Assembly: GCF_000022265.1 (NCBI RefSeq)
Contig: NC_011979.1
Span: 2,130,001-2,162,000 of the forward strand
DNA: 32,000 nucleotides
Origin: Geotalea daltonii FRC-32
Lineage (GTDB): Bacteria; Desulfobacterota; Desulfuromonadia; Geobacterales; Geobacteraceae
Reading direction: 5' to 3'
Positions 1-16,217 of this stretch are shown piece by piece. Position 1 is the stretch's first letter, and every line of letters begins with the position of its first letter. The translations under genes were made by a program, and so were the position numbers. The notes under the pieces are model-generated. The model had not been told where the DNA came from and made no database searches. It saw only the letters and a list, made by a program, of their open reading frames with translations.

Positions 1-988
1 TCAAAAGTCCCTGGAGCTTTCCCTGGAAGAGATCGACTCGGTGCTCACCCAGATGAAGGAAATGGGGGTGTATTTCGCCGTTATTTCCGGGGGAGAACCT
101 TTCTTCAAGGATGATATATTCGAGATATTCAGGAAGCATTCGGATATGGCGTTCCTCGTCTTCACCCACGGCGGGTTGATAGACGAGGCTATGGTGGAGC
201 GACTCATAGAGGTCGGCAATGTCATGCCCGCCTTTTCCCTTGAAGGCTATGAGACCGAGACCGATGAACGACGCGGCCCTGGCCACTTCAGGAAGGTGAT
301 GCACGCCATGGATCTGCTGAAAAATGCAGGGCTTTCATTCTGCGGCTCCTTTACCCACACCAGCAGGAATACGGATATTATTACCGATGGCAGTTATATT
401 GACATGCTGGTTGAGAAGGGCTGTTTTGCCCTCTGGCTTTTTTCTTATGTTCCGGTGGGGCGTAACCCGGATATGGCCTTGATGCCTGCCCCGGAACAGC
501 GAGACCTGATGCGGCGAAGGACAGCCGATTTCCGCGGTTCAAAGCCCATGCTGATCATCGATTTCTGGAATGACGGGCCCATCATCAGCGGTTGCATTGC
601 CGGTGGCCGTAAATATTTCCATGTCAATGCCAATGGCGACATCGAACCCTGCGTCTTCTGCCATTTTGCCGTGGACAACATCCGCCGCACTTCAATAAAC
701 GAGGCACTGAAATCGCCACTCTTCCGTAAGATCAGAGAAAAGCAGGGCAGCCACGAAAACCTGCTGAGACCTTGCATGCTGATCGATCATCCTTATGTGG
801 GGCGTGAAATGTTTGCCATGGAAGGCACCTACTCCACTCACGAGGGGGCAGGTGAAATTTTCACCGACCTGGCGGGGGACATGGACAAGTATGCTACTGA
901 TTATGCCAGGATTGCCGACCCGACCTGGAAAATGGAATTTACTGCTGAAGCAGGAGAGACAAAGCGGGCCGGTTCTGTAAAAGCATGA
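1..988 (+). CDS. Radical SAM enzyme, 5'-truncated by the window edge (non-B12 type, Cys-rich C-terminal region)
   Basis: The frame is open from base 2 (QKSLELSLEEIDSVL...), so the gene starts upstream of the window. It has a GGEPF glycine-rich motif and the general pattern of MoaA/NifB/PqqE-type radical SAM proteins. The C-terminus carries C-x18-C-x2-C-x37-C (nt 593-775). The CxxxCxxC motif would lie outside the window. Confidence 0.8.
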   Translation, partial: QKSLELSLEEIDSVLTQMKEMGVYFAVISGGEPFFKDDIFEIFRKHSDMAFLVFTHGGLIDEAMVERLIEVGNVMPAFSLEGYETETDERRGPGHFRKVMHAMDLLKNAGLSFCGSFTHTSRNTDIITDGSYIDMLVEKGCFALWLFSYVPVGRNPDMALMPAPEQRDLMRRRTADFRGSKPMLIIDFWNDGPIISGCIAGGRKYFHVNANGDIEPCVFCHFAVDNIRRTSINEALKSPLFRKIREKQGSHENLLRPCMLIDHPYVGREMFAMEGTYSTHEGAGEIFTDLAGDMDKYATDYARIADPTWKMEFTAEAGETKRAGSVKA

Positions 989-2340
989 ATGTCCTTTTGG
1001 TAAACCCGCCATCAACAGGAGTCTTTACCACCTTCGGGGTCAGTCTGCCGCCCATGGGGCTGCTCTACATTGCAGCGAGCCTTGAACAGGCCGGTCACAA
1101 GGTACAGGTTATCGATCTGCAGTGTGAACCGTCGGATCTCGATCCCTTTCATATCAAAGCAGCAGATGTTGTCGGGATCACTTCCGACACGACTCGCATC
1201 GAAAAAGCCATGGAGATTGCACGGCAGGCGGCAGCCATAGGCCGTCCGGTAGTTATGGGTGGCCCCCATCCGCAGTTCATGGCAGAAGAGATCCTTCGTA
1301 CCGGTCATGTGCATTGCATAGTGAAGGGAGAAGGTGATCTGACCTTTCCCCGGTTGCTTCAAAACTTGGAACGCCGTGAAGACCTGGCCGAGGTTGAGGG
1401 CATAATCTTCCGTGACGGGAAGAAGCTGGTGGAGACGGCCAACGGTCCAGTTCCCGACCCGGAACTGCTTTCTTTGCCCGCCCGTCATCTCCTGGATCTG
1501 GGCAAGTACAGTGCGTCCCTGAACGGTATTCCCCTTACGCCAGTAGTGACCAGCCGAGGCTGCCCCGGGGCATGTTCTTTCTGTTCCTCTTCCTCTTTCT
1601 TCGGGCGCCGCTGGCGTAGCCGCAGTCCGGAATCGGTGCTGGCAGAGCTCGACGAGGTGTATAACCGCTACGGCTTCCGTGCCGTTGCCTTTGTCGACGA
1701 CAACTTCAGTCTTTCCCCGGAGCGTGTCATTGCCATTGCCGATGGAATCCGCGCTCGCTCCTATGATCTGCAATGGTGGAACTTCTCCCGCGTCGATAAC
1801 ATCGTCGGCAACCCGCAGATGGTGCAAGCCATGGCACAGGCCGGGTCCAAAACGGTCTTTCTCGGCATCGAGAGTGCCGATGACGAATCATTGAAAACAC
1901 TGGGGAAAGAGAATCAGGGGGAGGCAACCGCAAAGGCGGTAAAGCTTTTGCAGGAAAATGGCATCGAGGTTTTTGGCAGCTATATTCTCGGCCATCTCAA
2001 TGAGACTGCCAAGGATGTGGAGCGGACCATCCAGATGGCGGTTGACCTGAACACCAATATTGCCCAGTTTTCCATCCTGACCCCATATCCCGGCACCCCC
2101 CTTTACAGGGAATTAAAGGAGCGGATATTTCTCAAGCGTTGGAAATTCTATGATGCTCTCCACCTTGTCTTCCGCCATCCGCGCATCAATCGACATCTGC
2201 TTCAGTTCTTGCTGATCAAGGCTTATCTACGGTTCTACCGGCGATCGAAGAAGGCAAAGGACGATTTCAGGGACTATGGCAAAACCCAGGATTTCAGCCT
2301 GAAGAGGATGTTGACCTGTGCATATGATCTTTTTTTCTAA
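985..2340 (+). CDS. B12-binding-domain radical SAM enzyme (class B), copy 1
   Basis: 451 aa. The N-terminus MNVLLVNPP...GLLYIAASLEQAGHKVQVIDL is typical of the cobalamin-binding-type domain. The CxxxCxxC motif is in TSRGCPGACSFC (nt ~1561-1584). The ATG overlaps the upstream stop by 4 bp (ATGA). Confidence 0.9.
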   Translation: MNVLLVNPPSTGVFTTFGVSLPPMGLLYIAASLEQAGHKVQVIDLQCEPSDLDPFHIKAADVVGITSDTTRIEKAMEIARQAAAIGRPVVMGGPHPQFMAEEILRTGHVHCIVKGEGDLTFPRLLQNLERREDLAEVEGIIFRDGKKLVETANGPVPDPELLSLPARHLLDLGKYSASLNGIPLTPVVTSRGCPGACSFCSSSSFFGRRWRSRSPESVLAELDEVYNRYGFRAVAFVDDNFSLSPERVIAIADGIRARSYDLQWWNFSRVDNIVGNPQMVQAMAQAGSKTVFLGIESADDESLKTLGKENQGEATAKAVKLLQENGIEVFGSYILGHLNETAKDVERTIQMAVDLNTNIAQFSILTPYPGTPLYRELKERIFLKRWKFYDALHLVFRHPRINRHLLQFLLIKAYLRFYRRSKKAKDDFRDYGKTQDFSLKRMLTCAYDLFF

Positions 2341-2377
2341 CAGGCGGATGAACAGCTTTGCTTGAAGAAGGCTTCCC

Positions 2378-3280
2378 TTGGCGCTATACAGTAGTTTGAA
2401 CCTGTTTTTCATAAGACTCTTTACCGTGCTCGTCCCCAGATTCATGCACCCTCCCTTTGCCATCTTCTGGGGCGGGCTTTTTTACCTGCTTCTGGCGGAA
2501 AAAAGACGGGGGATCAGGTCCAACATCAGGATCATCACCGGCAGTCGGAACGTGGAGCTGCTTGTGCTGGCCACCTATTACAAGTTCGCCCGCAACTGGT
2601 GCGATGTGATGCTGATGATGAGGTGGCGTGGCTCTAAACTGCAGTCGCTGATCGGCAGGAGGTCGGACGGCGGTCCTCTCGACGCAGCGCTTGCTGCAGG
2701 GAATGGCGCCATTCTCATTTCCCCGCACCTGGGTAACTGGGAGCTGGGGGGGCTGGGGCTTGCGGACATGGGGTACACCCTGAATGTCCTCACCTTCAGG
2801 GAGCCGGATGAGAAGGTAAACGAGTTGAGGGAGCAGGTCCGGCTTGAACGGGGTATTCGCTTTATCTATGTGGACCGGAACGATACGTCGCCGCTGGCGG
2901 TGATCGAGGCGGTCAACGCCCTTCGCCGTAACGAGATACTTGCTTTGCTTGGAGAGCGCGATGGCTCCTCCCATACCATGACCCTCGATTTTTTCGGCAG
3001 GCAGGCTTCCATTCCCGTTGGCGCCGCTTATCTGGCCATGGCCAGCGGAGCGCCGGTCATCCCCGTTTTCGTGCCTCTGGAGGGGAATCACTACGCCACT
3101 ATCATGGAAGCACCCATTTACTTCAGGGGAGGGCATGCCGACCATGCCGGGTCCATCGGGGAAGGGACAGAGCGCATCCTGAGGGTTTTTGAGAAATACA
3201 TCAGAATGTACCCGGACCAGTGGTACAATTTCTTCGACTACTGGGGCAGGGAAAATATCAACAAGGAAAAGGGTTTATAG
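2378..3280 (+). CDS. LpxL/HtrB-family lysophospholipid / lipid A acyltransferase
   Basis: 300 aa with a hydrophobic N-terminus. The HLGNWE motif (H-x4-E/D acyltransferase motif of the lauroyl/myristoyl acyltransferase family) sits in ILISPHLGNWELGG. The start is uncertain: TTG 2378 is the first possible start, and ATG 2445 is an alternative. Confidence 0.85.
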   Translation: MALYSSLNLFFIRLFTVLVPRFMHPPFAIFWGGLFYLLLAEKRRGIRSNIRIITGSRNVELLVLATYYKFARNWCDVMLMMRWRGSKLQSLIGRRSDGGPLDAALAAGNGAILISPHLGNWELGGLGLADMGYTLNVLTFREPDEKVNELREQVRLERGIRFIYVDRNDTSPLAVIEAVNALRRNEILALLGERDGSSHTMTLDFFGRQASIPVGAAYLAMASGAPVIPVFVPLEGNHYATIMEAPIYFRGGHADHAGSIGEGTERILRVFEKYIRMYPDQWYNFFDYWGRENINKEKGL

Positions 3281-3538
3281 ATGTCAGAAGAATTGATCGA
3301 CCAAGTGAAACAACTGATTATAGACAGCCTCCGCATCGAGGGGATGGGGATCAGCGACATCGAGACGGACGCTCCCCTGTTTGGCGAAGGGTTGGGGCTC
3401 GACTCCATCGACGCTCTGCAACTGGTGGTAGGGATGGAAAAGGCATTCGGCGTTGTCGTCCCTGATGCAGAGACCGGCAACAAGGTTTTCCGCTCCGTCA
3501 GGACCATGGCAGAATTCATCGCGGAACACCGTAAATGA
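3281..3538 (+). CDS. Acyl carrier protein (dedicated, cluster-specific)
   Basis: 85 aa and acidic. The phosphopantetheine attachment motif is GLGLDSIDALQLV. The ATG follows the upstream stop directly. Confidence 0.9.
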   Translation: MSEELIDQVKQLIIDSLRIEGMGISDIETDAPLFGEGLGLDSIDALQLVVGMEKAFGVVVPDAETGNKVFRSVRTMAEFIAEHRK

Positions 3539-4824
3539 AACTGCTTCTCATCTCTCCAGGCTGGCCCAAGGGGAGATTGTGGGGCGAGCTGGGGTTCAAA
3601 TTCCCATCCCTTTCCCTCGCAGCCATTGCCGCAGCTACCCCGCCACACTGGGAGGTGGCCCTGTGCGACGAGAACGTGGAGCCCCTTGATGTTGCCGGCC
3701 ATGCGGATCTGGTGGCCATCACCGCCATGACTCCCCAGGCGCCCCGCGCCTATGAGATTGCCGACCAGTTCCGTGCCAGGGGCATAAGGGTTGTGATGGG
3801 GGGCTTCCACGCCAGCAATCTTCCCGATGAGGCGCTTCTCCATGTTGATGCGGTAGTCGTGGGCGAGGGTGATCTGGTCTGGCCCCGGCTGGTATCTGAT
3901 TTTGAAAGGGGAACCCTGCAGCCCGTTTATCGCCCCGACGCCATGCTGGACATGGCGGATCTGCCGGTTGCCAGGCGGGAGATCTTTGCCGGCAAAGGCT
4001 ATCTACTCACAAACACACTCCAGACCACCCGCGGTTGCCCCTTTGACTGCGAGTTTTGTTCAGTTACCGCCTTTTACGGCAGAAAATACCGGGAGCGGCC
4101 GGTGGAGCAGGTACTTACCGAACTTGAAGTGCTGCGCAAGCAGAATTCCTTCGCCTTTTTCGTCGATGACAATCTGGTGGCCAACCGCCGCTATGCCCTG
4201 TCCCTGTTCTCAGCCATGAAAGGAATGGGATTCAAATGGCTTTCCCATGCCCCCATCGACTTTGCCGGTGATCCCGAACTAATGCGAGCGGCCGGCGAAT
4301 CCGGCTGCATCGGCATGTTCGTCGGCTTCGAATCGCTAAACCAGGAATCGCTGGTGGCGATGGGCAAGGTGACCAACCAGGCCACATCATATCTTGAGCA
4401 GGCCAAGGTCTTTCGCGACCACGGCATCGGTATTCTCGGCTCATTCGTCCTGGGTTCCGACGGTGATACTCCCGCCATCTTCGAACCCATACTTCGTTTC
4501 TGCGAAGAAGCCCGTATCGAGGCTGCCATCTTCCCCATCCTAACTCCCTATCCAGGAACCAAGGTTCGTGAAAGGCTGGAAAAAGAGGGGCGCATAACTT
4601 CCAATGACTGGCGCGATTACGATATGGGGCATGTGAATTTCATTCCGCGGGGCATGAGCGCAGCCGAGCTGCAGGCTGGCCATGACTGGCTCAACCGGTC
4701 GTTTTATTCCTTTTCTTCCATGTACCGGCGGATTTTCAAGCTGCACCGATCGGTGCAGGTCTTTGCACCGATGAATTTCGGTTTCCGGAGCGCCATCCGG
4801 CGCACGGCCAAGGTTATGGGGTAG
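3535..4824 (+). CDS. B12-binding-domain radical SAM enzyme (class B), copy 2
   Basis: 429 aa. N-terminus MKLLLISPG...; CxxxCxxC in TTRGCPFDCEFC (nt 4036-4059). There is a 4-bp ATGA overlap with the ACP stop. Confidence 0.9.
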   Translation: MKLLLISPGWPKGRLWGELGFKFPSLSLAAIAAATPPHWEVALCDENVEPLDVAGHADLVAITAMTPQAPRAYEIADQFRARGIRVVMGGFHASNLPDEALLHVDAVVVGEGDLVWPRLVSDFERGTLQPVYRPDAMLDMADLPVARREIFAGKGYLLTNTLQTTRGCPFDCEFCSVTAFYGRKYRERPVEQVLTELEVLRKQNSFAFFVDDNLVANRRYALSLFSAMKGMGFKWLSHAPIDFAGDPELMRAAGESGCIGMFVGFESLNQESLVAMGKVTNQATSYLEQAKVFRDHGIGILGSFVLGSDGDTPAIFEPILRFCEEARIEAAIFPILTPYPGTKVRERLEKEGRITSNDWRDYDMGHVNFIPRGMSAAELQAGHDWLNRSFYSFSSMYRRIFKLHRSVQVFAPMNFGFRSAIRRTAKVMG

Positions 4825-4828
4825 GCTG

Positions 4829-5674
4829 ATGGATTGTTTCATGTTCCCTGGACAACCACTGGCCCGAGGCGCCGCTCTGCCCCCGGATGAGGGCTTTACC
4901 ACAATTGCGGAACTGGTGAGGCAAAAGGCCGGCTTCGACTTGCTCACTTCCAGCTGGCTTCGAGAGGCGAGCACCGAAAATGTCGGCCTCCAGCTCTATG
5001 GCGTAGGGATGAGTCTGTATATGAACCGTAAAATGCGGTCTGCAGGGATTCAACCTGCTGTGGTCGCTGAACACAGCATGGGAATTTATCCGGCACTGGC
5101 TGCGTGCTCTTCACTTCCCGAGGCAGAGGTAATTGAACTTACCTGGCGTGTTGGCGCATGCCTGGCAGAAATGGGCAAAAACCGGGGCTTTGCCCTTGGC
5201 TGCATCATCGGCTTGACCTGCGAGCCGGTGTTGGCCATTGCCGGTAACAGTGGCACTCATCTGGCAAATCATAACACTTCCCGTCACTTTCTTCTCTGTG
5301 GCACGAAAGAAAATATTGAAACAGCCGTTGCCGAGGCCCTTGCCCAAGGAGCCTTTTCGGCAAAAGTCTTTGATTGCGACGCGCCCCTTCACACTCCTCT
5401 CATTTCTGAGTTGGAAACACCGTTGCGGCAGATATTGGCCGATTACAGCTATGCTGAGCCCTGCGGAGTTCTCATTGATCACCTGGAGCAGAACCGATTA
5501 AAGGCAAAAGACCTGCCCGATTTCATGTTCAGACAGCTCTGTATGCCGGTTTACTGGGAAAGAACCTACCGTGCCTTGGTTAGTATGGGGGCAAAGAGAT
5601 TTCATGAGGTAGGGGCAGGCGAGGCGCTGAAAAAGTACAACCGCTGGATAGCCAGTGAAACTGACCAGAAATGA
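4829..5674 (+). CDS. FabD-like acyl-CoA:ACP transacylase
   Basis: 281 aa. It has an MFPGQ N-terminal signature, a nucleophile elbow AEHSMG (FabD has GHSLG) and a downstream LHTPL histidine region. Confidence 0.8.
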   Translation: MDCFMFPGQPLARGAALPPDEGFTTIAELVRQKAGFDLLTSSWLREASTENVGLQLYGVGMSLYMNRKMRSAGIQPAVVAEHSMGIYPALAACSSLPEAEVIELTWRVGACLAEMGKNRGFALGCIIGLTCEPVLAIAGNSGTHLANHNTSRHFLLCGTKENIETAVAEALAQGAFSAKVFDCDAPLHTPLISELETPLRQILADYSYAEPCGVLIDHLEQNRLKAKDLPDFMFRQLCMPVYWERTYRALVSMGAKRFHEVGAGEALKKYNRWIASETDQK

Positions 5675-6101
5675 GAGTGCGGTGAATTTCCACGAGACCT
5701 TGATCAAAGTGCGCTTCAATGAGGTGGATGCTTACCGGGTTGCCTGGCATGGCCATTATGTGGCATGGATGGAAATAGGACGCAATGACCTTGCTGAACG
5801 CTTCGATGTGGGTGTGGAGCAAATCTCCGATGCAGGGTTCATGGCGCCGGTGGTGGATCTCAGCATCAAATACAAAAGACCCGCCCGCTTCGGCGAGGAG
5901 CTGCGCGTGCGCACGAGAGTGAAGCGCACCGAGACGAGCACTCTCGAATTTACCTGTGATATTGTCGGCGAAGATGGACAGCTGACCGCCTCGGGAAGGA
6001 CCGTGCACGTCCTGACTGACATGAATGGGGTCTTGCAGTATACCTTGCCGCCGGTTATTGCCGAGAGGCTTGAAAAGATGATGGCGTTTCTGGGGGTGTG
6101 A
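5655..6101 (+). CDS. 4HBT/YbgC-type hotdog thioesterase
   Basis: 148 aa. The sequence VRFNEVDAYRVAWHGHYVAWME matches the acyl-CoA thioesterase 4HBT pattern with a catalytic Asp. The start is uncertain: GTG 5655 overlaps the upstream gene by 20 bp, while GTG 5682 lies just after the upstream stop. Confidence 0.8.
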   Translation: MKLTRNESAVNFHETLIKVRFNEVDAYRVAWHGHYVAWMEIGRNDLAERFDVGVEQISDAGFMAPVVDLSIKYKRPARFGEELRVRTRVKRTETSTLEFTCDIVGEDGQLTASGRTVHVLTDMNGVLQYTLPPVIAERLEKMMAFLGV

Positions 6102-7507
6102 TGGATATCCTGCTGATCTCAGCCAACAGGGAAAGGACCCCGTATCCGGTTTTCCCTCTCGGTCTTTCCTATCTTGCCGGCCCGCTGGCCGAACGGGGAC
6201 ACCGCTTGAAGGTCCTTGACCTCTGCTTTGCCGATGATCCTGAATCTGCTGTAAGTACAGCTCTCGACGAGTTCACTCCCGATGCAGTGGTTCTTTCCAT
6301 CAGAAACATCGACAACGTCACCTTTCCCGGGAGCCGTTCCTATCTGCCCGGGGTGAAAAAGATCGTCGACATCTGCCGCGGCAGGGTGCCGGTTATCGCC
6401 GGCGGTTCGGGCTTTTCCATCATGCCGGCGGAGATTCTCGCCTACCTGGATGCGGATTACGGCGTGGTCGGCGAGGGAGAGGAAATCTTGCCGGAACTGC
6501 TGACATGCATCTCCGATGGCTTGATTCCCGAGTCCCTGCCGGGGGTGCTGGTCAGGGAAAAAACCGGTTTCTTGCCCGCCAGACTCATCCAGAGCATAAG
6601 ACCTGCCGAGCGCGGCCTTTTCCCGCTGGAACGGTACTACCGCGAAGGGGGGATGGCCAACCTCCAGACCAAGCGGGGCTGCCCCTTTTCCTGCATCTAC
6701 TGCACCTATCCCCTGTTGGAGGGGAGGGCGATCAGGGTGCGGCCGATCGGCGACATCATCACCGAGATCAGATCTCTGGTGGAGGGCTTCGGCATCGGTT
6801 ACATCTACTTTGTCGACGATATCTTCAACTACCCCCCCGAATTTGCCGAGGAACTGTGCCAGGCCATGATCTCCGAGAAACTTCAGATCAACTGGACCGC
6901 CTTCATCAACCCGGCCTTCATAACACCATCCCTGCTGCAGACAATGATTGCCGCCGGTTGCGACGCCGTGGAATTCGGCAGTGAATCGGGTTCAGCCTCG
7001 ATGCTGCGCAATCTCGGTAAATCGTTTACCGTCGATGATCTGCGCAACTCCTCGCGCCTGTGCCGGGAAGCAGGGGCGGATTTTGCCCACTATATTCTCT
7101 TCGGCGGACCCGGTGAGAGCGAAGCAACCATCGACGAGACTTTTGCCCTGATGGACGAGCTTGAACCGACTGCCGTCATTGCCATGACCGGCATCCGTAT
7201 CTTCCCCGGCACGCCATTGCACGCTTCCGCCCTGGCCGACGGCACCCTTGCTGCGGAAACATCCCTGCTGGAACCCGTTTTCTATATTTCGCCTCCCATC
7301 CGGGAGACCCTCTGCCAGATGGTCACGGAGCGGGCACTGGCCAGAAAGAACTGGGTGGCGCCGGGGCTGGAAATCAACATGAGCGATGCCATGCTGGAGG
7401 CCCTGCGCCATTTTCCGGTGCGGGGACCGCTGTGGAAGCTGATGAAAAGACTCGGCCGGAGCAGGATCAGGCCCATGTCGGCAACCGTCGTTGAATCTGC
7501 CGTCTGA
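6098..7507 (+). CDS. B12-binding-domain radical SAM enzyme (class B), copy 3
   Basis: 469 aa. N-terminus DILLISAN...LSYLAGPLAERGHRLKVLDL; CxxxCxxC in TKRGCPFSCIYC (nt 6680-6703). The start is GTG 6098 or, more likely, ATG 6101 (TGATG overlap with the thioesterase stop). Confidence 0.9.
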   Translation: MMDILLISANRERTPYPVFPLGLSYLAGPLAERGHRLKVLDLCFADDPESAVSTALDEFTPDAVVLSIRNIDNVTFPGSRSYLPGVKKIVDICRGRVPVIAGGSGFSIMPAEILAYLDADYGVVGEGEEILPELLTCISDGLIPESLPGVLVREKTGFLPARLIQSIRPAERGLFPLERYYREGGMANLQTKRGCPFSCIYCTYPLLEGRAIRVRPIGDIITEIRSLVEGFGIGYIYFVDDIFNYPPEFAEELCQAMISEKLQINWTAFINPAFITPSLLQTMIAAGCDAVEFGSESGSASMLRNLGKSFTVDDLRNSSRLCREAGADFAHYILFGGPGESEATIDETFALMDELEPTAVIAMTGIRIFPGTPLHASALADGTLAAETSLLEPVFYISPPIRETLCQMVTERALARKNWVAPGLEINMSDAMLEALRHFPVRGPLWKLMKRLGRSRIRPMSATVVESAV

Positions 7508-7518
7508 ATGGAGCTTTT

Positions 7519-8316: not shown

Positions 8317-8331
8317 TGGCATTTCATTAGC
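8317..8331 (+). promoter_or_regulatory. Candidate sigma-54 (-24/-12) promoter
   Basis: TGGCATTTCATTAGC compared with the consensus TGGCAC-N5-TTGC. The GG-N10-GC spacing is exact. It lies in the only sizeable (104 bp) intergenic gap of the forward operon, 33 bp upstream of the ketosynthase ATG. Confidence 0.3.
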
Positions 8332-8363
8332 GAACAAGTTAGCCAGATGCCACGAAGAGAACA

Positions 8364-9569
8364 ATGGAAAGAAAAAGAATAGCAATAACCGGATTGGGCG
8401 TTTTCGCTGCCGCCGGCAAAGATATAACTTCCTTCACCGATGCCCTTCTTAACGGCCGATGTGCCATGGGTCCCATCGACCTTTTCGATGTAAGCCGCTT
8501 TTCCTCAAGGATCGGTGCCCAGGTTCCAGGCTTCAATCCCCTCGACTATTTCAGCGCGCGAAATGCGGCAAAGCTTTCCCGTGCCGACCAGTTCGGCGTC
8601 ATTGCCGCCGGTGAAGCTTTGGCTGACAGCGGCGCTTTGCAACATTACTCACCATACGATGTGGGCATATCCATGGGCGCAGGCTCTGCCGGCATGCTTC
8701 ATGCCGAGCAATGGCTGAACGAGACCATCGCCGGCAGCAATCCGGACCCATCTCTTCTGCGAGGCATACTCCCCGACCGCACCTCCACGGCCATTGCCGA
8801 AACATATGGAATCGGCGGCTATCAGGGAAGCATCACCACTGCATGTTCTTCATCTGCGAACGCCATTGGCTGGGGTGCCGACCTCATCGCCTCCGGCAGA
8901 TTGAAGGCAGCCGTGTGTGGCGGTTCGGATTGTCTCTGCATATTGACCTTTGCCGGCTTCAATTCCTTGAGAGTTATCGATCCGGAACCCTGCGCCCCTT
9001 TCAGCCTGGGGCGGCGCGGCATATCCCTGGGAGAGGGGGCTGCTTTCCTTGTTTTAGAAGAGGAAAACGCTGCAAAAGAGCGCGGCGCAAAGATCCATGG
9101 TTATGTGCTTGGTTATGCAGTGGCGGGAGAGGCCCATCACATGACCGCTCCCGCACCGGACGGTGTCGATGCCTCCGAACTCATGGCTGCCGCTTTGAAA
9201 CAAGCCGGTGTTTCAACCGCGGATATCGGCTGGGTAAATGCCCATGGCACCGCTACGCCTCTCAATGACGTGGTGGAGACCAAGGCCATGAAACTGGTAT
9301 TCGGCGAGCGGGCCAAGGATGTGCCGCTGGTTTCCACCAAGGCCCTCACCGGCCACTGTCTCGGCGCTGCCGGGGCCATTGAAGCTCTGGCCACCGTGAT
9401 CGGCCTGAGAGACGGCTTTATCCCCCAGACGCTCAATTTCAGGGGGGCAGACCCTGAGTGTGACCTTGACTATTGCCACCAGGGGTTAAAGGCGAGCAAT
9501 GCCACGCTGGCGCTCTCCAACTCCTTTGCCTTCGGTGGAAACATAACAAGTCTGGTGCTCGGTAAATGA
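8364..9569 (+). CDS. Beta-ketoacyl-ACP synthase (KAS I/II-like, catalytically complete)
   Basis: 401 aa. The active-site Cys is in TTACSSSANAIG, and the two His are in EAHHMTAP and NAHGTATPLND. Confidence 0.9.
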   Translation: MERKRIAITGLGVFAAAGKDITSFTDALLNGRCAMGPIDLFDVSRFSSRIGAQVPGFNPLDYFSARNAAKLSRADQFGVIAAGEALADSGALQHYSPYDVGISMGAGSAGMLHAEQWLNETIAGSNPDPSLLRGILPDRTSTAIAETYGIGGYQGSITTACSSSANAIGWGADLIASGRLKAAVCGGSDCLCILTFAGFNSLRVIDPEPCAPFSLGRRGISLGEGAAFLVLEEENAAKERGAKIHGYVLGYAVAGEAHHMTAPAPDGVDASELMAAALKQAGVSTADIGWVNAHGTATPLNDVVETKAMKLVFGERAKDVPLVSTKALTGHCLGAAGAIEALATVIGLRDGFIPQTLNFRGADPECDLDYCHQGLKASNATLALSNSFAFGGNITSLVLGK

Positions 9570-10609
9570 AGAATATTGCCAAAGACATAGTAATTACCGG
9601 CATGGCGGCCATTTCTGCCGCTGGTGTCGGACTTGATCCCCTGGTTACTGCATTGGGAGAAGGCAAAAGTCTGCTCAAGCCGATCCCGGCAGATATCGCC
9701 GGTTCGGAGGGCTACCTGTGGGGTAAAGCTGACGCCTTCAAGGGGGGCGATTTCATGCCGCCCCTCAAGGCGCGGAAATTTGACCGTTGCAGTCTTTTTG
9801 CCGTTGTTGGCGCCGGAATGGCGCTCAAGGATGCCGGCATCGACCGTGGCACCATAGATGCCGGCAGAATAGGCATTGTCCTCGGCTGCGGATTCGGCGG
9901 CATTGCCAATTCGGAGGAATTCCTGCGCGGCTACTTCTGCTCCGGTGCAGAAGGTCTTTCACCGATGCTTTTTCCCAACACCGTTCCCAATGCCCCGGCC
10001 AGCAATGCCTCCATCGAAAACGGCCTCAAAGGCCCCAATGTAACCTTCGTTCAGCGTTTCTGCTCGGCCGAATCGGCTTTCATGATGGCCTGCCGCTTTT
10101 TGCAGGAAGGGCGTGCCGAGATCATTCTCACCGGCGGCGTCGATGAGCTGACCACTGCCATGGTCAGGGGATTCAAGGCAGCTGGACAGTTGAGACGCCA
10201 TGGGGCCGGTTTCGGCGAAGGGGCCGGTATTCTGGTGCTGGAAAGGGGCGACCACGCCCGGGGGCGTAATGCCGTGATCAAGGGGCATGTGGGAGAAGTG
10301 CGGACCATTGGCCGTTTGATCCCGGGCCTTGAGGCCGAAGGGGCGGACCGGCTGCTTTCCGGAGTAAAAGATATCAAGCTGGCAGGGCTTTCCGGAACAG
10401 CAGTTGCCGAGAAGACTCTGATGGAGCGGTTGCCCGCTGTGGAACGCCTTGAAACCGGTAACATCATCGGGCGGGCACTTGGTATGGGGGGGCTTGCCAT
10501 GGCCGCCCTTGTCCTCTCCCTTCCACAGGAGGCTGCCGGCCTGCATGTGGCGGCCTCGCCGGAAGGACCTTACTACGCCATTGAATTAAGTGGAGGATCG
10601 CCTGTTTAA
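9566..10609 (+). CDS. Ketosynthase-like partner subunit (chain-length-factor-like, lacks the His-His motifs)
   Basis: 347 aa with a thiolase-fold N-half (ITGMAAISAAG, GCGFGG). It retains a Cys in RFCSAESA, but no HxxxP or xHGTG motifs are recognisable. There is a 4-bp ATGA overlap with the ketosynthase. Confidence 0.8.
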   Translation: MKNIAKDIVITGMAAISAAGVGLDPLVTALGEGKSLLKPIPADIAGSEGYLWGKADAFKGGDFMPPLKARKFDRCSLFAVVGAGMALKDAGIDRGTIDAGRIGIVLGCGFGGIANSEEFLRGYFCSGAEGLSPMLFPNTVPNAPASNASIENGLKGPNVTFVQRFCSAESAFMMACRFLQEGRAEIILTGGVDELTTAMVRGFKAAGQLRRHGAGFGEGAGILVLERGDHARGRNAVIKGHVGEVRTIGRLIPGLEAEGADRLLSGVKDIKLAGLSGTAVAEKTLMERLPAVERLETGNIIGRALGMGGLAMAALVLSLPQEAAGLHVAASPEGPYYAIELSGGSPV

Positions 10610-10988
10610 TTCAGACCCCTCCCAGTATCTTCCCCACTGCCCCCCGTTTCTCTTCGTGGATAAAGTTATCAGCCGTGAGCCCGGTGTCAGTGCAACCGCA
10701 GAGATTGTCGTTACAGCTGGCAGTGGTCCTTTCCCTCCGATTCTGCTGATCGAGTCCATGGCTCAGGTGGGTGGTATTGCCGCCGGGCAGGTGGCCGGAG
10801 CCGGGGGAGTCCTTGCCGCCGTCAGCCAAGGGCTAATCCCTGCCGCAGTGGGCCCAGGGAAATATCTGGTTTCTGCGCGTATCGTCAAATCTTTTGGCAC
10901 ACTGCACATGGTGGAAGGGGAAGTGCTGGGGGAGGGAATATCCATTGCCAGCGCAATCCTGACCCTTGCAGTGGGCAGTCCGGGATGA
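10590..10988 (+). CDS. FabZ/FabA-like hotdog beta-hydroxyacyl-ACP dehydratase
   Basis: 132 aa. LPHCPPFLFVDKV resembles FabZ LPHRYPFLLVD (catalytic His), and LIESMAQVGG resembles FabZ IEAMAQ (catalytic Glu). The GTG start overlaps the upstream gene by 20 bp. Confidence 0.8.
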   Translation: MEDRLFNSDPSQYLPHCPPFLFVDKVISREPGVSATAEIVVTAGSGPFPPILLIESMAQVGGIAAGQVAGAGGVLAAVSQGLIPAAVGPGKYLVSARIVKSFGTLHMVEGEVLGEGISIASAILTLAVGSPG

Positions 10989-11022
10989 CACCATTCTCCA
11001 TAACCTGTTCCGAGAGAAAACA

Positions 11023-11631
11023 ATGAAAAAGATCCTGCTTGTATTGCTGTTTATTTCTTTCTGTCTGGGGCAATCTGCCCATGCTGCCCCCAATAAGGCC
11101 TTGGAAGCACTGGAGACGCTGCGGCGTGGTTTTTCCGGCATGAACGATTTTACTGCCGATATTGTCCAGGAAAAGCAGATGGCCATGATGAAGCGGAAGA
11201 TGGTCTCAAAAGGGATTGTTCGCTTCAGGAAGCCGGGCACCTTCTTCATGGAGCTTTTGCCTCCCTATGCCAGCCGCCTTCTCCTGCGGGACAATGTTTT
11301 GACCATGCGCCTGCCCGAGCAGGGGGTAACCGACCGGATCGTGCTGCCGCCGGATGAGAGCCTTGATAAATGGTTCGCCTACCTGGCAAAACCTATGACC
11401 AAGCTTCCGGAAGGGATGGAGGTGCGGGCCGACCGCCAAGGGAGCACCTGGAATGTCCAGTTGTCTCCCAAGGGCAAGGGTGGAGTCAAGGACCTGGCCA
11501 TCAGCTTCGATGCCGACGGCAAGATCAAGCGCCTGGCAATCGATGAGCGAAACGGAGACCGAACAGTCATCAAGTTTGCCAACATGCGGCGCAATGCCGG
11601 CCTGACAGAAAAGGACTTTCTCCTGGATTAG
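11023..11631 (+). CDS. LolA-like outer-membrane lipoprotein/lipid carrier, secreted
   Basis: I place the start at ATG 11023 (MKKILLVLLFISFCLGQSAHA signal peptide) rather than at the longest-ORF start 10966. The length, the DFTADIVQEK... pattern and the position next to an MMPL exporter are typical of LolA-domain proteins in pigment/lipid clusters. Confidence 0.75.
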   Translation: MKKILLVLLFISFCLGQSAHAAPNKALEALETLRRGFSGMNDFTADIVQEKQMAMMKRKMVSKGIVRFRKPGTFFMELLPPYASRLLLRDNVLTMRLPEQGVTDRIVLPPDESLDKWFAYLAKPMTKLPEGMEVRADRQGSTWNVQLSPKGKGGVKDLAISFDADGKIKRLAIDERNGDRTVIKFANMRRNAGLTEKDFLLD

Positions 11632-11648
11632 ATCCAGTCATTATCCCC

Positions 11649-14177
11649 ATGCCCAATGCCATCCGCACCATAACCCGTTCGTTTCAGCAGCTCGTCCATC
11701 GTCATCTTGCATGGATCCATCGCATGACCACCACCTATCCGCGGCGAGTGGTGATCATGGCTTTACTGCTCCTGCTATCCTCCATTGCTTCCATTGCCAC
11801 CACCAGATTTGAAGCCGATATCTTCAAGCTCTTCCCGTCCCAGGCAGGTCCGCTCAAGCTGTTCCTCGATTCACTGGAGTGGACCGGCGGCGCCAAGGAT
11901 GTCTATTTTCTGTTGGAGGGGGAACCATCCCTTCTGCCGGTCGAAGCTGAGAGACTGGCGGCCAGGCTGAAGACGCTGCAGGTGGATGGGACAACTGCCT
12001 TTCGCAATGTCAAATATCGTGTCTACGATACCTCCGAGGCAGCATCCTTCGCCCGGTTCATCGCCTATGCCGTAACCCATCCCCAACTGTATCTGGATCC
12101 TGCCGAAGCAGGCAATTATGGGGTGAAATTTGACCAGCCCGCAATAAACAAGGCTCTGGACAGGGCCGGAACAGAGCTTGCCAGCCAGGTGGGGATGGGA
12201 ATGCGGGACATAATTGCCGCAGATCCGCTCTACCTGCGCGAGTTGATTCTGCCGCGCCTGAAAAAGGCCAGCCAGGCCTTGGCCCTTGATACCACTTCGC
12301 CGTATTTTCTTTCCCGCGACGGGCAGGTGCTGATCATGATCGCCGAGCCGGCCCAGCCGGTGCAGAATATCGCCTTTGCCAGAAAACTGGTGGCAGGCAT
12401 TGAAGAGGTCCGCAGCGGTATGAAGGTGAATGTTTCCTGTGCCGGTGCCCACCTCTCAGCGGTAATGGACGAGCGGGTAATGAAAGAAAATATCATCGCC
12501 TGCATTGTTTCGTCCCTGATTGTGGTGCTGGGGCTGTTCTACCTGACCTACCGCCGGGTGCTTCCCACTCTGCTCATTCCGCTGATTCTTTTTTACGGCG
12601 TCGCCCTTGCCCTGGGGACTGCCGGCCTTTTTCTCTCCTCCATCAGCATCATCTCCTTTGCCTTTACCGCCTTGATCATCGGCCTCGGTACCGATTACTC
12701 AATCCACCTTTATGACCGCTATTACAGCGAGCGGAGCCTTGGCCGCGATACCGGTGAAGCAATGGGACTTGCCATCGTCGAAACCGGCCATGGCATATTC
12801 ACCGCTGCTGCTACCACCGCGCTGCCTTTTCTGGCGCTCACCATTTCCGATGTGCGCGCCCTTTCCGAGCTTGGCCTGCTTGTGGGCCTGGGAGTGATCT
12901 TCTCTCTCTATGCGACCTTTTTCTTTCTGCCGCCGTTTATCATTGCTGCTGAACGGCGCTTTCCTGCCGTGTCATACCGTCCGCTGCCCAGATTTGGGCT
13001 GGGGTGGATCTGGAAAAAGTGCCTGACCCGTTCCGGTTGGATTGTCGGCCTCTCTGCCCTGTTTTTTTGCGTTCTTCTGGTTGCTGCATGTTTCATCAGC
13101 TTTGAAGGTGATTTGAAAAATCTCCAGCCACGCCATTCGGAGGCCTTCCTTGCCCAGGAAAAAATGGAAAAACATCTGAGCTTGAGCCCCAAGCAGATGC
13201 TGGTGGCGCTGGACGGGCATCTGCCGGCGGAATTGATGGAGCGGGGGGGACGGGTTGAGACGCTGTTGTCAGAGTATCAGCGGCGCGGCAATATTGTTTC
13301 CTGGTCTTCCCTCGGGCAGGTATTGAATAATCGGGGGGTACAGGCTGAGGTGCTGAATTCCCTGCAACAATCTTTAGCAGGCAAGCGGCCTTCAGAGGCG
13401 GTACGGGGGGCATTGCAGGAAAAGGGCTTTGCTCCTGAGGCATTCGGGCCGTTTCTGGACAGTCTTGCCGGTCTCGGCCACGCAGCGCCTGTGGATGAGA
13501 GTGAAGCCCTCGACCATCTCGGACGTTCACCCCTGCGGGGTGTGGTGGAACGCCATCTGATCAAAGACAAAGGCAATTACCATCTGCTTCTCTACATTAA
13601 TTACCGGGGAGCGGAGTTCCACCAACAAACGTTCCTTAAACAGCTGGCGGCCATTGACCCCTCTGCCCGCGCTACCAGCGTCGATCTGGTCAGCGAGCAG
13701 CTTGGCGGCGCCGTGAAGAAGAGCTTTTTCTGGGGATTCCTGCTGGGTGGCGCGCTGGTGTTGTTTCTGCTTCTATCCCATTTCTCATCACTGGGGGAGA
13801 TCTGGCACTCACTCTTTCCGGTGGTGGGAGGGGTAATAGCAATGCTGGGGCTGATGGTTCTGACCGGTATGCGCCTCAATTTCATGAACGCCATGGTCCT
13901 GGTTACCATTGTCGGTATGGGGAGCGACTATGGCATGCATGTCCTGCACCGGGTGACGGCGCTGGATATGCATGAAGCCGGCGAGCAGTTCGTCCAGTCC
14001 GGGCGAGCGGTGCTTCTGTCGGCGCTTACCACCATTGCCGGTTTCGGCTCTCTGGCCTTTACCGATTACGGGGCCATGTCCTCCATCGGCTGGGCAACCA
14101 ACTACGGCATTGCCGCCACCGCCATCTTCGCCCTGGTGACGCTGCCGGCGATGATCTGCCGCCACAGACGCTCCTGA
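11649..14177 (+). CDS. MMPL/RND-superfamily exporter
   Basis: 842 aa. It has two hydrophobic bundles, each with the MMPL-type motif (GLGTDYSIHLYDRY and GMGSDYGMHVLHRV), separated by large soluble loops. Confidence 0.85.
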   Translation: MPNAIRTITRSFQQLVHRHLAWIHRMTTTYPRRVVIMALLLLLSSIASIATTRFEADIFKLFPSQAGPLKLFLDSLEWTGGAKDVYFLLEGEPSLLPVEAERLAARLKTLQVDGTTAFRNVKYRVYDTSEAASFARFIAYAVTHPQLYLDPAEAGNYGVKFDQPAINKALDRAGTELASQVGMGMRDIIAADPLYLRELILPRLKKASQALALDTTSPYFLSRDGQVLIMIAEPAQPVQNIAFARKLVAGIEEVRSGMKVNVSCAGAHLSAVMDERVMKENIIACIVSSLIVVLGLFYLTYRRVLPTLLIPLILFYGVALALGTAGLFLSSISIISFAFTALIIGLGTDYSIHLYDRYYSERSLGRDTGEAMGLAIVETGHGIFTAAATTALPFLALTISDVRALSELGLLVGLGVIFSLYATFFFLPPFIIAAERRFPAVSYRPLPRFGLGWIWKKCLTRSGWIVGLSALFFCVLLVAACFISFEGDLKNLQPRHSEAFLAQEKMEKHLSLSPKQMLVALDGHLPAELMERGGRVETLLSEYQRRGNIVSWSSLGQVLNNRGVQAEVLNSLQQSLAGKRPSEAVRGALQEKGFAPEAFGPFLDSLAGLGHAAPVDESEALDHLGRSPLRGVVERHLIKDKGNYHLLLYINYRGAEFHQQTFLKQLAAIDPSARATSVDLVSEQLGGAVKKSFFWGFLLGGALVLFLLLSHFSSLGEIWHSLFPVVGGVIAMLGLMVLTGMRLNFMNAMVLVTIVGMGSDYGMHVLHRVTALDMHEAGEQFVQSGRAVLLSALTTIAGFGSLAFTDYGAMSSIGWATNYGIAATAIFALVTLPAMICRHRRS

Positions 14178-14187
14178 ATCAGACTGA

Positions 14188-14805
14188 TCAGCGGAATAAT
14201 GTAATCCCCAGAAGAATTTTGCTGGAATTGAGCGGCTCGTTGGGGGAGGCGGTGCCGGCATTGGAAATGTGGTGGTAGCGGTATTCCAGGCTGACCGCCT
14301 TGTCCTTGGCAATGAAGTACTGGACGCCGGTTCCCCCCTGGTAGGAGAAATCCAGGCGGCTTCCCATGGTCGGCAGTCCCAGATCCACAAAAAGCACTCC
14401 GCCACCGGCAAAGACATAGGGTGCAAAATCCTCCAGGGAAGTAAATTTCCAACTCCCCAGCAGGTAGCCGCCAGTCATGGACCGCACCCTTGGGTCCACG
14501 GTCAGGTGCAGCGGCAGTTCCATCAACAGCTCATGACGTCCCCGATACCAGCCGCGACCTGTCTCATCGGAGAGGAACCAGCCGAAACGGGCGATGGTGT
14601 CGTAGGTCTGCACCTGGGTCCTGGTGTCGCCGAAACCGCGGTGGGTGATGCCGTAGCCCGAAAGCAGCGTATATTCGCCGGTGGCATTTCTGACGGTGAC
14701 CTCTTCAGCGTAAGCAGCTGCGTTGCTGCAAAGGATTATTGTCAGGGCGACAGCTAAAATCTTCCCATAAACTGTTTCACTTCTCCCCATCTGCACCCTT
14801 ACCAT
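14188..14805 (-). CDS. PagL-like lipid A 3-O-deacylase / acyloxyacyl hydrolase family outer-membrane protein
   Basis: 205 aa with a signal peptide (KILAVALTIILCSNAAAYA) and alternating beta-strand pattern. The C-terminal motif YRYHHISNAG matches the H-x-S-N catalytic motif of PagL-type deacylases. The start is ATG 14805 or ATG 14790. Confidence 0.75.
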   Translation of the reverse strand: MVRVQMGRSETVYGKILAVALTIILCSNAAAYAEEVTVRNATGEYTLLSGYGITHRGFGDTRTQVQTYDTIARFGWFLSDETGRGWYRGRHELLMELPLHLTVDPRVRSMTGGYLLGSWKFTSLEDFAPYVFAGGGVLFVDLGLPTMGSRLDFSYQGGTGVQYFIAKDKAVSLEYRYHHISNAGTASPNEPLNSSKILLGITLFR

Positions 14806-16217
14806 TTCTGCTTCATCTCGAACCTGAGGATCTCCGGCAGATTGCGCAGGAACATCTTGATACTGTGGGGCGACTTCCAGAGCATTTTCGTGTAACCCCA
14901 GTGGATCCGGCTGCGGCGGTAAAAACGCCTGATGAATTCGTTATAGAGGTTTTCCAGCTGCTCCAGGGTCATGCCATGGGGGATGAAGACGAAGTTCATG
15001 CAGTTCATGTCCGGCCAGTCCTCCCTGAATTCCCCCTGCTGGCAGATGTTTTCGTAGATGGGAGCCCCCGGAAACGGGGTGAACTTGGTAACGTTGATTT
15101 CGTCCAATGGCAGCGTCAGGGCATAGTCGATGGTGCGCCTGATGGCGGCTTCGTCTTCCCCCGGCAGACCGACCATGAACAGCCCCTTGACCCTCATACC
15201 GCCGGTTTTCACCATCTTCAGCTTTTGATGCACGGCGTCCAGTGCCATGTATTTGCGGTGCTTCTTCAGGACCTCCGGGTCTCCGGACTCGATGCCGAAA
15301 TTTACCTGCCAGCAGCCCGATTTCTTCAACAATCCCACCAGTTCTTCATCCACATGCTCAAGACGGGCGATGCAGTTGTAGGTGACCGGTAGCCGGTTGT
15401 CCACCAGCAGGCGGCACAGTTCCTCCACCCTGCTGCGGTCGAAGGTGAAGAGATCGTCGTAAAAGAAGACGTGGCGGATGCCGAAGTCCCGGTGCAGGTA
15501 TTTCAGGTGCTCGAAGATGTAGCCGGGGGAATTGAAGCGGAAGCCCCGGCTGAAGACCGAACGGTCGCAGTAGCTGCAGTGGTAGGGGCAGCCGCGGCTG
15601 GAGATGATGCTGGTATTGGGAGCAGCAGGATAACTGAAGAGGGGCAGGTTGTATCTGCCGGGAAATTGGTCCAGCCGGTGATAAGCCGGGAAGGGGAGTG
15701 AATCCAGATCAGCGATATGCTGGCGAATGCCGCTTAAGACCCCCTTGCCGTCGCGGCGATGGCCGATGCCGGGAATATGTTCCACGCCGCTGAAGTTGGC
15801 AGCCAATAGCTCGTAAAAGGTTACCTCTCCTTCGCCGATGATCAGATAGTCGATGGCGGGGAAGGTGTCGAGTAGTGAAACGCCGACCGAGCAGGCGTGG
15901 GCACCGCCAAAAATGACCTTGATCTCCGGTGCCTGTTCCTTGATACTATGGGCTATCCCATAACCTTCGAGGAAGGATGAGGTGGTACAGGAAAAGCCGA
16001 CCACATCGGGCTTGCTGCCGATTATGTGGGCAACAAGCTCCGGCGTGGGCATGGGCCTGGCATAGCAATCCATCAGCTCCACTTCCATTCCCTTCGCCTC
16101 CAGATAGGCAGCGATGCTCATCATTCCCAAAGGGGGCATCAAGTTGAAGATGGAGCTGATATCTTTCAGATTCCCCAGCCAGTTTCTGCCGTGGGGGTGG
16201 ACAAATAGTGCTTTCAA
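14799..16217 (-). CDS. B12-binding-domain radical SAM enzyme (class B), copy 4
   Basis: 472 aa. The N-terminus ...PPLGMMSIAAYLEAKGMEVELMDC is B12-binding-type, and CxxxCxxC is in SSRGCPYHCSYC. The TTG start at 16217 is preceded by AAGGAG at a 5-nt spacing. The stop overlaps or abuts the PagL-like start. Confidence 0.9.
   Translation of the reverse strand: MKALFVHPHGRNWLGNLKDISSIFNLMPPLGMMSIAAYLEAKGMEVELMDCYARPMPTPELVAHIIGSKPDVVGFSCTTSSFLEGYGIAHSIKEQAPEIKVIFGGAHACSVGVSLLDTFPAIDYLIIGEGEVTFYELLAANFSGVEHIPGIGHRRDGKGVLSGIRQHIADLDSLPFPAYHRLDQFPGRYNLPLFSYPAAPNTSIISSRGCPYHCSYCDRSVFSRGFRFNSPGYIFEHLKYLHRDFGIRHVFFYDDLFTFDRSRVEELCRLLVDNRLPVTYNCIARLEHVDEELVGLLKKSGCWQVNFGIESGDPEVLKKHRKYMALDAVHQKLKMVKTGGMRVKGLFMVGLPGEDEAAIRRTIDYALTLPLDEINVTKFTPFPGAPIYENICQQGEFREDWPDMNCMNFVFIPHGMTLEQLENLYNEFIRRFYRRSRIHWGYTKMLWKSPHSIKMFLRNLPEILRFEMKQKW

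Follow-up and report, generated by a model that had tools for sequence, protein, structure and literature searches.

Clusters that combine type II fatty acid synthesis (FAS-II) genes with radical S-adenosylmethionine (SAM) genes have been described in Kuenenia, and similar clusters were named in Geobacter, Pelobacter and Desulfotalea, the last of which was found to contain polyunsaturated hydrocarbons but not ladderanes (Rattray 2009, PMC2649909). AntiSMASH 'ladderane' calls have also been reported in metagenome-assembled genomes (MAGs) and phyla outside the anammox bacteria, including Desulfobacterota, with the function unknown. Dietl 2023 and two texts from 2026, a review and a PNAS paper, consider the role of the cluster and its radical SAM chemistry unproven and the 'ladderane synthase' putative. 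No genetic system exists for anammox bacteria, and attempts to express the radical SAM enzyme in another host have not succeeded so far. Here, a stretch of 32,000 nucleotides from Geotalea daltonii FRC-32 (NC_011979.1, positions 2,130,001 to 2,162,000; hereafter the window) was analysed, which carries a FAS-II/radical SAM gene cluster with a member of the protein family TIGR04072.

We consider it probable that this locus is the Geobacterales version of the TIGR04072-type lipid cluster, in which a chain carried by an acyl carrier protein (ACP) would be tailored, transferred and exported to the outer membrane. A first-pass annotation of the same DNA had proposed a lipid cluster saturated with radical SAM enzymes and equipped with its own export arm, and had linked it to the ladderane candidates, a link that agrees with the naming of Geobacter in the 2009 report. 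No part of that interpretation was contradicted, but the novelty it implied was overstated, because the cluster type is already present in the literature and in annotation pipelines. The searchable literature returned no paper on TIGR04072 or its name, and no Geobacter paper on ladderanes, antiSMASH or biosynthetic gene clusters, or on the locus tags GSU0456-0461; the cluster is not discussed in the Geobacter and Pelobacter genome papers.

The TIGR04072 enzyme and the other radical SAM proteins

Genes were called from the list of open reading frames (ORFs) together with Pfam and NCBIfam scans of the window proteins, and the translations were inspected for motifs and active-site residues. The protein encoded at 6098-7507 matched the NCBIfam model TIGR04072, 'lipid biosynthesis B12-binding/radical SAM protein' (rSAM_ladder_B12), with 395 bits against a cutoff of 360, covering profile positions 2-440 of 443. 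This is the model that the first-pass annotation had mentioned by name. The protein has the architecture of the family, a B12-binding domain and a radical SAM core with a CxxxCxxC motif, and a 98%-identical homologue bears the TIGR04072 name in the NCBI annotation; a look-up of the identical sequence returned no record. At E <= 1e-30, the family of this enzyme fell into 1672 clusters when grouped at 50% identity and into at least 6921 when grouped at 90%.

The closest solved structure was TsrM (6wte; E 1.9e-37), followed by AprD4 and 9ccb. R69 of the protein aligned with Arg69 of TsrM inside an RN(I/T)D loop common to both, and R69 and N70 were invariant among 24 diverse family members. In TsrM, Arg69 occludes the lower face of cobalamin, and the cob(I)alamin that it stabilises serves heterolytic methyl transfer, while Glu273, a ligand of the unique iron, blocks SAM binding and stops radical cleavage of SAM (PMC13331322, PMC8992657). 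The position of Glu273 is taken by I242 in the window protein and by Ile or Val across the family, so that formation of a 5'-deoxyadenosyl radical would not be barred. Judging from this alignment, the TIGR04072 enzyme may use cobalamin as a methyl carrier in the manner of TsrM, and the TsrM-type arginine favours methylation, with other C-C chemistry possible too. The two enzymes share the CxxxCxxC motif and the cobalamin-face arginine, but their substrate settings differ, being tryptophan and a thiopeptide for TsrM (tryptophan 2-C-methyltransferase, PDB 6wte/6wtf) and ACP and lipid for the TIGR04072 enzyme. In addition, the window protein scored 142 bits on the TsrM NCBIfam model, the cutoff of which is 500.

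As the first-pass annotation had stated, the window cluster contains five radical SAM genes, four of them of the B12 type. The Pfam scans confirmed the B12-binding and radical SAM domains of these four, and the translations showed their quoted CxxxCxxC motifs, namely GCPGACSFC (985-2340), GCPFDCEFC (3535-4824), GCPFSCIYC (6098-7507, residue 195) and GCPYHCSYC (14799-16217). The fifth gene, at 2-988, shows no CxxxCxxC motif because the window begins inside it: the N-terminal third and the cluster-binding motif are missing, and the full orthologue in an intact Geotalea toluenoxydans assembly (L002) has 460 aa and carries CNLSCYGC.

Assignments of these enzymes to other described families did not hold. 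The 985-2340 protein reached 202 bits as a BchE (cutoff 481), and no radical SAM gene of the cluster exceeded 160 bits for HpnR (cutoff 650) or 180 bits for HpnJ (cutoff 578). The three other B12 enzymes scored 72-113 bits on TIGR04072, against its cutoff of 360, and were also far under the cutoffs of BchE, HpnR, HpnJ and PhpK, among others; all NCBIfam matches of the 14799-16217 protein were below cutoff. Every NCBIfam match of the 2-988 protein was far under its cutoff. This SPASM-type enzyme was also considered as a relative of tetraether or membrane-spanning lipid synthases and rejected, as its PDB matches were generic (SkfB, BlsE and PqqE) and GDGT-MAS matched only at E 0.005.

Gene content, boundaries and conservation of the cluster

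In the window, the cluster forms one long plus-strand operon together with a convergent minus-strand pair (Table 1). Many adjacent genes overlap by 4-23 bases, consistent with translational coupling. Over 17.5 kb, the window runs collinear with Geotalea toluenoxydans (96.7% nucleotide identity), and its proteins are 96-100% identical to their counterparts there; L002 was the locus used for the genes 5' of the window.

Table 1. Genes of the cluster in the window, with the supporting domain and family matches
Gene product	Coordinates	Strand	Match or remark
Radical SAM/SPASM enzyme, 5'-cut by the window edge	2-988	+	PF04055, PF13186
B12-binding radical SAM 1 (BchE/HpnR-like)	985-2340	+	PF02310, PF04055
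LpxL/LPLAT-family acyltransferase	2378-3280	+	PF03279, E 5.5e-28
Dedicated ACP	3281-3538	+	PF00550
B12-binding radical SAM 2 with DUF4070	3535-4824	+	PF02310, PF04055, PF13282
FabD-like malonyl-type acyltransferase	4829-5674	+	PF00698
4HBT (YbgC/FadM-type) thioesterase	5655-6101	+	PF13279, PF03061
B12-binding radical SAM 3, TIGR04072 member	6098-7507	+	PF02310, PF04055, TIGR04072
FabG-like 3-ketoacyl-ACP reductase	7519-8259	+	PF13561, PF00106
FabF-type ketosynthase (KS), both domains	8364-9569	+	PF00109, PF02801
KS partner, chain-length-factor-like	9566-10609	+	PF00109 only
FabZ-like hot-dog dehydratase	10590-10988	+	NCBIfam FabZ E 2.7e-9, below cutoff
LolA-like periplasmic carrier	10966-11631	+	PF03548
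MMPL/RND-type inner-membrane exporter (HpnN/BstA-like)	11649-14177	+	PF03176
PagL-family outer-membrane lipid deacylase	14188-14805	-	PF09411, E 2.7e-21
B12-binding radical SAM 4 (HpnJ/Sden_1168-like)	14799-16217	-	PF02310, PF04055; overlaps PagL start
GH13-like cytoplasmic protein, 1160 aa	16751-20233	+	PF00128; variable passenger or accessory gene
LolB-like outer-membrane lipoprotein	20230-20940	+	PF03550, E 2.7e-10

The chain-building genes named in the first-pass annotation, the acyltransferase and the export genes were each supported by the Pfam and NCBIfam scans, and every quoted motif could be read in the translations. The ACP carries LGLDSID and matched PRK09184 with 67.3 bits, close to the cutoff of 70. 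The FabD-like protein has EHSMG and retains the malonyl-transferase residues Ser, Arg and His, with fabD and mdcH matches below cutoff. The thioesterase reached 67.1 bits on TIGR00051 (cutoff 68.7), and the FabG-like reductase, with Ser, Tyr and Lys kept, reached 268 bits on TIGR01830 (cutoff 298). The ketosynthase (KS) has a complete triad of Cys161, His (HHMT) and His (AHGT). Its partner has Phe at the position of the active-site Cys, and no C-terminal KS domain was detected in it; in a Geobacter sulfurreducens paralogue, NP_951518, Cys163 is likewise replaced by Phe and the remaining active-site residues of the list are absent (Rattray 2009, PMC2649909, Table 2). The dehydratase contains LPH... 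and IESMAQ and keeps the FabZ His and Glu, and its AOG1 orthologue weakly matched PF07977. No enoyl reductase is encoded in the cluster. The acyltransferase has the HX4E motif HLGNWE, and NCBIfam matched it best, though well short of any cutoff, to PIM acyltransferase and to generic LPLAT models.

The LolA-like protein has a signal peptide, its likely true start being the ATG at 11023, and the LolB-like protein has a signal sequence that ends in Cys. The MMPL protein is a 12-helix-type RND protein with 184 bits on HpnN (cutoff 752) and a BstA match below cutoff. The PagL protein scored 76.6 bits on PF09411 (cutoff 23), and it has a signal peptide and an HHISN...E motif with the His, Ser and Glu kept. 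The gene inventory of the first-pass annotation was thus correct, with two details to be amended: the window edge truncates the first radical SAM gene, and PagL lies on the minus strand, the plus-strand ORF at 14269-14757 being domainless. Together, these genes appear to encode a pump in the inner membrane, a carrier in the periplasm, and a receptor and a deacylase in the outer membrane.

To assess conservation, species-representative genomes were scanned for relatives of the 6098-7507 protein, which gave at least 542 loci. The best 80 of these, all from Geobacterales and with 59-98% identity, were compared with the window proteins by tblastn; genes on the upstream side were counted in the 60 loci whose upstream flank reached 9 kb or more, and those on the downstream side in the 43 loci that had as much sequence downstream. 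The gene order recurred in about 60 Geobacterales species-representative genomes, indicating a grouping beyond chance, and the neighbourhood comparison suggested by the first-pass annotation gave conserved synteny across Geobacterales.

On the upstream side, the FabD-like transferase and the thioesterase were present in all 60 loci, the acyltransferase and the ACP in 59 each, and the SPASM radical SAM and the DUF4070-type B12 radical SAM in 58 each, the latter as two to three tandem paralogues upstream of the FabD-like gene in 25 (e.g., L013, L016 and L082). These genes belong to the core, as do a polysaccharide deacetylase and a family 2 glycosyltransferase (GT2), both located upstream of the window and each found in 57 of the 60 loci. 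BchE-like B12 radical SAM 1 (17/60) is accessory. On the downstream side, the core genes FabG, KS, KS partner, dehydratase and LolA were each present in 38 of the 43 loci, and within the reach of the flanks the LolB-like and MMPL genes were detected in 27 and 28, respectively. PagL (8/43) and B12 radical SAM 4 (6/43) are accessory. The number of radical SAM genes per Geobacterales cluster was three to six, three of them core, compared with five in the window cluster.

These comparisons also placed the boundaries. In other Geobacterales, the usual order past the dehydratase is LolA-LolB-MMPL, whereas in the window the MMPL gene, the PagL/radical SAM pair and the GH13-like gene stand between LolA and the LolB-like gene, so that the LolB-like gene at 20230-20940 is a cluster member. 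In L002, the deacetylase is the first cluster gene and follows a divergently oriented YceG gene, which sets the 5' boundary about 3.9 kb upstream of the window start. As read from gene order, the Geobacterales cluster therefore spans the upstream deacetylase and GT2 through the LolB-like gene. The expectation in the first-pass annotation that more genes lie upstream was right, but its end of the cluster at 16217 was too short. The upstream GT2 was most similar to the polyprenyl-phospho-GalNAc synthase PpgS, then to AglJ and ArnC, and the deacetylase to the XrtA-type deacetylase, all below cutoff.

Several further observations concern the locus and its surroundings. A GH13-like gene lies between LolA and LolB in 6 of the 43 loci, either as a variable passenger or as an accessory gene. 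The catalytic regions of the window protein are readable and its only PDB match was faint; the gene is translationally coupled to the LolB-like gene, which puts an alpha-glucan-type enzyme inside a lipid export arm. A small ORF of 85 aa at 16439-16696, ahead of the GH13-like gene, was also called in L002 and has no domain match. After the LolB-like gene, overlapping ORFs of 110-200 aa at 20944-21951 are domainless except for a faint 4Fe-4S match at 20944-21303, and a GT4 glycosyltransferase and a glycogen-debranching-like enzyme follow at 22010-25292. The region 25587-31892 contains unrelated housekeeping and sensing genes, including an outer-membrane beta-barrel protein (minus strand), a beta-carbonic anhydrase, FxsA, a NudC-like NUDIX hydrolase and two tandem paralogous methyl-accepting chemotaxis proteins (27522-29219 and 29257-30900). 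No cobalamin riboswitch or any other Rfam family was above threshold in the window (1-32000), despite four predicted cobalamin enzymes, and promoter and terminator scans gave chance-level results. In the Geotalea toluenoxydans JCM 15764 draft (L001/L004), the cluster is split into many short ORFs, which look like frameshift errors rather than pseudogenes, the L002 assembly being intact.

Looser versions of the cluster were present in distant MAGs, as seen among relatives with 34-50% identity (L084, L085, L086, L087, L088 and L089). L084 and L085 contain the SPASM radical SAM, the acyltransferase, the ACP, the FabD-like transferase, the thioesterase, two more B12 radical SAM genes and FabG, and no KS was found near the radical SAM module of either; the L084 counterparts were 63% identical for the ACP, 43% for the acyltransferase and 41% for the 3535-4824 protein. 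L086 and L088 have a KS, its partner and the radical SAM gene followed by a class I methyltransferase, and L088 additionally has an ACP, a thioesterase, a GT2 and a SPASM radical SAM. L089 has LolA, two KS genes, two extra B12 radical SAM genes, a FabD-like gene, FabG and an ACP. The radical SAM gene is thus linked to a dedicated ACP and a FabF-type KS in the window, in 38 of the 43 Geobacterales loci and in the distant L086, L088 and L089. This constant pairing of the TIGR04072 family with ACP-dependent chain building supports an acyl-ACP or ACP-derived substrate.

Two features were specific to distant relatives. HGD-D/DUF2229 and BcrAD_BadFG genes lie inside the operon in L084 (803-3982), L085 (847-3934) and L089 (329-2345). 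These belong to the family of 2-hydroxyacyl-CoA dehydratases and of the PlsA/Ger enzymes that convert ester to ether lipids, and their presence hints that some distant versions make ether or otherwise reduced lipids. In relatives with 34-47% identity, a class I SAM methyltransferase directly adjoins the TIGR04072-like gene (L086:11452-12198, L088:11341-12240 and L087:443-1108); it does not occur in the Geobacterales clusters. Anammox FAS-II clusters reportedly encode SAM-dependent enzymes as well, among them a methyltransferase that has been crystallised.

A proposed route to an outer-membrane lipid

Starting from the observed gene content, intact catalytic motifs, translational coupling and conserved Geobacterales synteny, a pathway can be proposed. 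The FabD-like transferase would load malonyl units on the dedicated ACP, and the KS with its inactive partner, the FabG-like reductase and the FabZ-like dehydratase would extend the chain. Because no enoyl reductase is present, enoyl or polyenoyl intermediates may persist. The ACP-bound chain would be tailored by the three core radical SAM enzymes (SPASM, B12/DUF4070 and TIGR04072), joined in the window species by two further B12-type enzymes. Tailoring would most likely be C-methylation, as a TsrM-type arginine under the corrin favours cycling between cob(I)alamin and methyl-cobalamin, and the BchE/HpnJ-like paralogues might also form C-C bonds or close rings.

The thioesterase would edit or release the chain, and the LpxL-family acyltransferase would move it to an acceptor, possibly a lipid-linked amino sugar from the upstream GT2 (polyprenyl-phosphate-HexNAc-synthase-like) and deacetylase. 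Such an amino sugar is a reasonable guess for the acceptor or for a co-product. The MMPL pump, the LolA-like carrier and the LolB-like lipoprotein would then deliver the lipid to the outer membrane, where the PagL-like deacylase may remodel it. Methylation, cyclisation and the lipid anchor are all predictions from the protein sequences.

Several points weigh against this pathway. In the searchable literature, from whose coverage most subscription-journal papers fall outside, no product was tied to any orthologue; a known product of a syntenic cluster, which the first-pass annotation had named as grounds for abandoning its claim, was accordingly not found. Literature searches also returned no unusual Geobacter lipid of the radical SAM type. 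Apart from TIGR04072, every enzyme scored below the curated cutoff of every named family, so that the substrate assignments are by analogy only. Sequence cannot tell methylation from ring formation, and the identity of the acceptor lipid is a guess. Finally, the KS and export genes do not stand beside the radical SAM module in 5 of the 43 loci (e.g., L017, L081 and L082) or in L084 and L085, suggesting that the two halves may not be obligatorily linked.

More tentatively, Geobacteraceae and many other anaerobes might make an undescribed class of outer-membrane lipid, in which radical C-C chemistry on an ACP-bound chain gives a multiply methylated, cross-linked or carbocyclic product and the number of B12 paralogues (3-6) sets the number of tailoring events; we hold this wider proposal as possible but doubtful. 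The chemistry of the TIGR04072 family has been proposed to underlie ladderane biosynthesis, and the lead, available since 2009, is 17 years old. A tractable, complete and well-bounded version in cultivable Geobacter or Geotalea offers a route to the product and to the enzymology of radical SAM proteins acting on acyl-ACP. Since Geobacter is genetically tractable and anammox bacteria are not, the locus would, if the proposal is true, be the first experimentally accessible 'ladderane-type' radical SAM/FAS model and could reveal the function of TIGR04072. The product of the cluster might also supply new sedimentary lipid biomarkers.

Alternative readings and comparison with known systems

In Rhizobiales, the AcpXL/LpxXL cluster for the very-long-chain fatty acids of lipid A brings together an ACP, a FabZ-like protein, two FabF-like proteins and an LpxL-family acyltransferase, and the same set shares a locus here. 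The gene set presumably resembles acpXL-fabZXL-fabF2XL-fabF1XL-lpxXL of Rhizobium, and the cluster might accordingly remodel lipid A, with a special long or branched chain, made by the dedicated ACP, the two FabF-like proteins and the FabZ-like dehydratase, added as a secondary chain by the LpxL-family enzyme. The GT2 and deacetylase would then make an undecaprenyl-phosphate amino sugar (cf. ArnC/ArnD and the Francisella GalN pathway), and PagL would remove a primary chain. The PF03279 acyltransferase, PagL, ACP, KS with partner and dehydratase are all present, and the GT2 matches PpgS and ArnC-type transferases. However, lipid A moves by MsbA and Lpt, whereas MMPL, LolA and LolB are conserved in the Geobacterales clusters, the best matches of the acyltransferase lie with PIM acyltransferase and generic LPLAT models, and PagL is confined to 8 of the 43 loci. 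To our knowledge, the Rhizobiales cluster lacks both radical SAM genes and LolA/LolB/MMPL, and its product reaches lipid A via the normal lipopolysaccharide route, so that the radical SAM enzymes have no counterpart in it. We therefore regard lipid A remodelling as unlikely, though it fares best among the alternatives.

A similar weighing applies to the aryl-polyene, flexirubin and xanthomonadin clusters, whose scaffold the first-pass annotation had recognised here. The window cluster shares with them the KS and its inactive partner, ketoreductase, dehydratase, 4HBT thioesterase, ACP, LPLAT, LolA-like protein, MMPL and also GT2, as well as the absence of an enoyl reductase. Family scores point the same way at a low level, the ACP match to PRK09184 being near threshold and those of the KS to PRK09185, together with FlxB and LolA2_flexi (62.9 bits for the LolA-like protein), below cutoff. 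The product could then be an outer-membrane-anchored polyene that lacks an aryl head, may be methylated and protects against oxidative stress. But no AMP-binding or lyase domain and no adenylating, ammonia-lyase or other aromatic-starter enzyme was found, either in the window or in the 3.9 kb that precede it in L002, in agreement with the first-pass annotation. The family-specific models for these pigments all remained below cutoff, and the Geobacterales clusters carry three to six radical SAM genes; we know of no canonical aryl-polyene cluster with a radical SAM gene. A pigment cluster is thus an improbable reading.

The hopanoid exporter HpnN and the sterol system BstABC resemble the export arm in dedicating an RND/MMPL pump with a periplasmic and an outer-membrane partner to one lipid class, but here the partners are LolA- and LolB-like and the cargo is presumably acyl-based rather than triterpenoid. 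The locus as a whole could be read as one for hopanoid tailoring and transport, with HpnJ/HpnR-like radical SAM enzymes, an HpnN-like exporter and an HpnI/K-like glycosyltransferase and deacetylase, and HpnR, HpnJ and HpnN are indeed among the best or near-best NCBIfam matches of three radical SAM genes and MMPL. We consider this very improbable, because those scores are three to seven times under the curated cutoffs, no squalene-hopene cyclase or other hpn gene is present, and hopanoid pathways make no use of the ACP, ketosynthases and malonyl transferase around which the locus is built.

Synthesis of true ladderane lipids with concatenated cyclobutane rings, as proposed for the related anammox cluster, is the least probable reading and can practically be set aside, since the TIGR04072 match above cutoff, the dedicated ACP, the FabZ variant, the FabF beside a degenerate FabF and the stated homology to the anammox clusters (Rattray 2009, PMC2649909) are outweighed by the lack of a phytoene-dehydrogenase-like gene in any window or L002 ORF, by the failure to find ladderanes in Desulfotalea with its syntenic cluster (same report), and by the restriction of ladderane reports to anammox bacteria.

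The anammox ladderane candidates (Kuenenia kuste3603-3608, kuste3335-3352 and kuste2802-2805) and their syntenic relatives in Desulfotalea, Geobacter and Pelobacter were compared with the window through published descriptions (Rattray 2009; Dietl 2023). Both sides contain a B12 radical SAM enzyme, the tie to TIGR04072 being drawn from the short name rSAM_ladder_B12, and both contain a dedicated ACP, a FabZ variant and an active FabF beside a FabF paralogue without an active site (9566-10609 in the window). A polysaccharide-deacetylase-like gene and a glycosyltransferase also lie nearby in each, and the function of every one of these clusters is putative. However, the window cluster differs in its host, which is not an anammox bacterium, in having neither a phytoene-dehydrogenase-like gene nor a class I SAM methyltransferase, and in its more numerous radical SAM genes (five), the added LolA/LolB/MMPL arm and PagL.

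The cluster type is therefore already known: it has been modelled (TIGR04072), noted in Geobacter since 2009 and flagged by genome mining, and the window contains a well-preserved and unusually radical-SAM-rich example of it. To this known type, the present analysis adds the full Geobacterales boundaries, the division of the radical SAM genes into core and accessory, the LolA-LolB-MMPL arm and the TsrM-like cobalamin signature.

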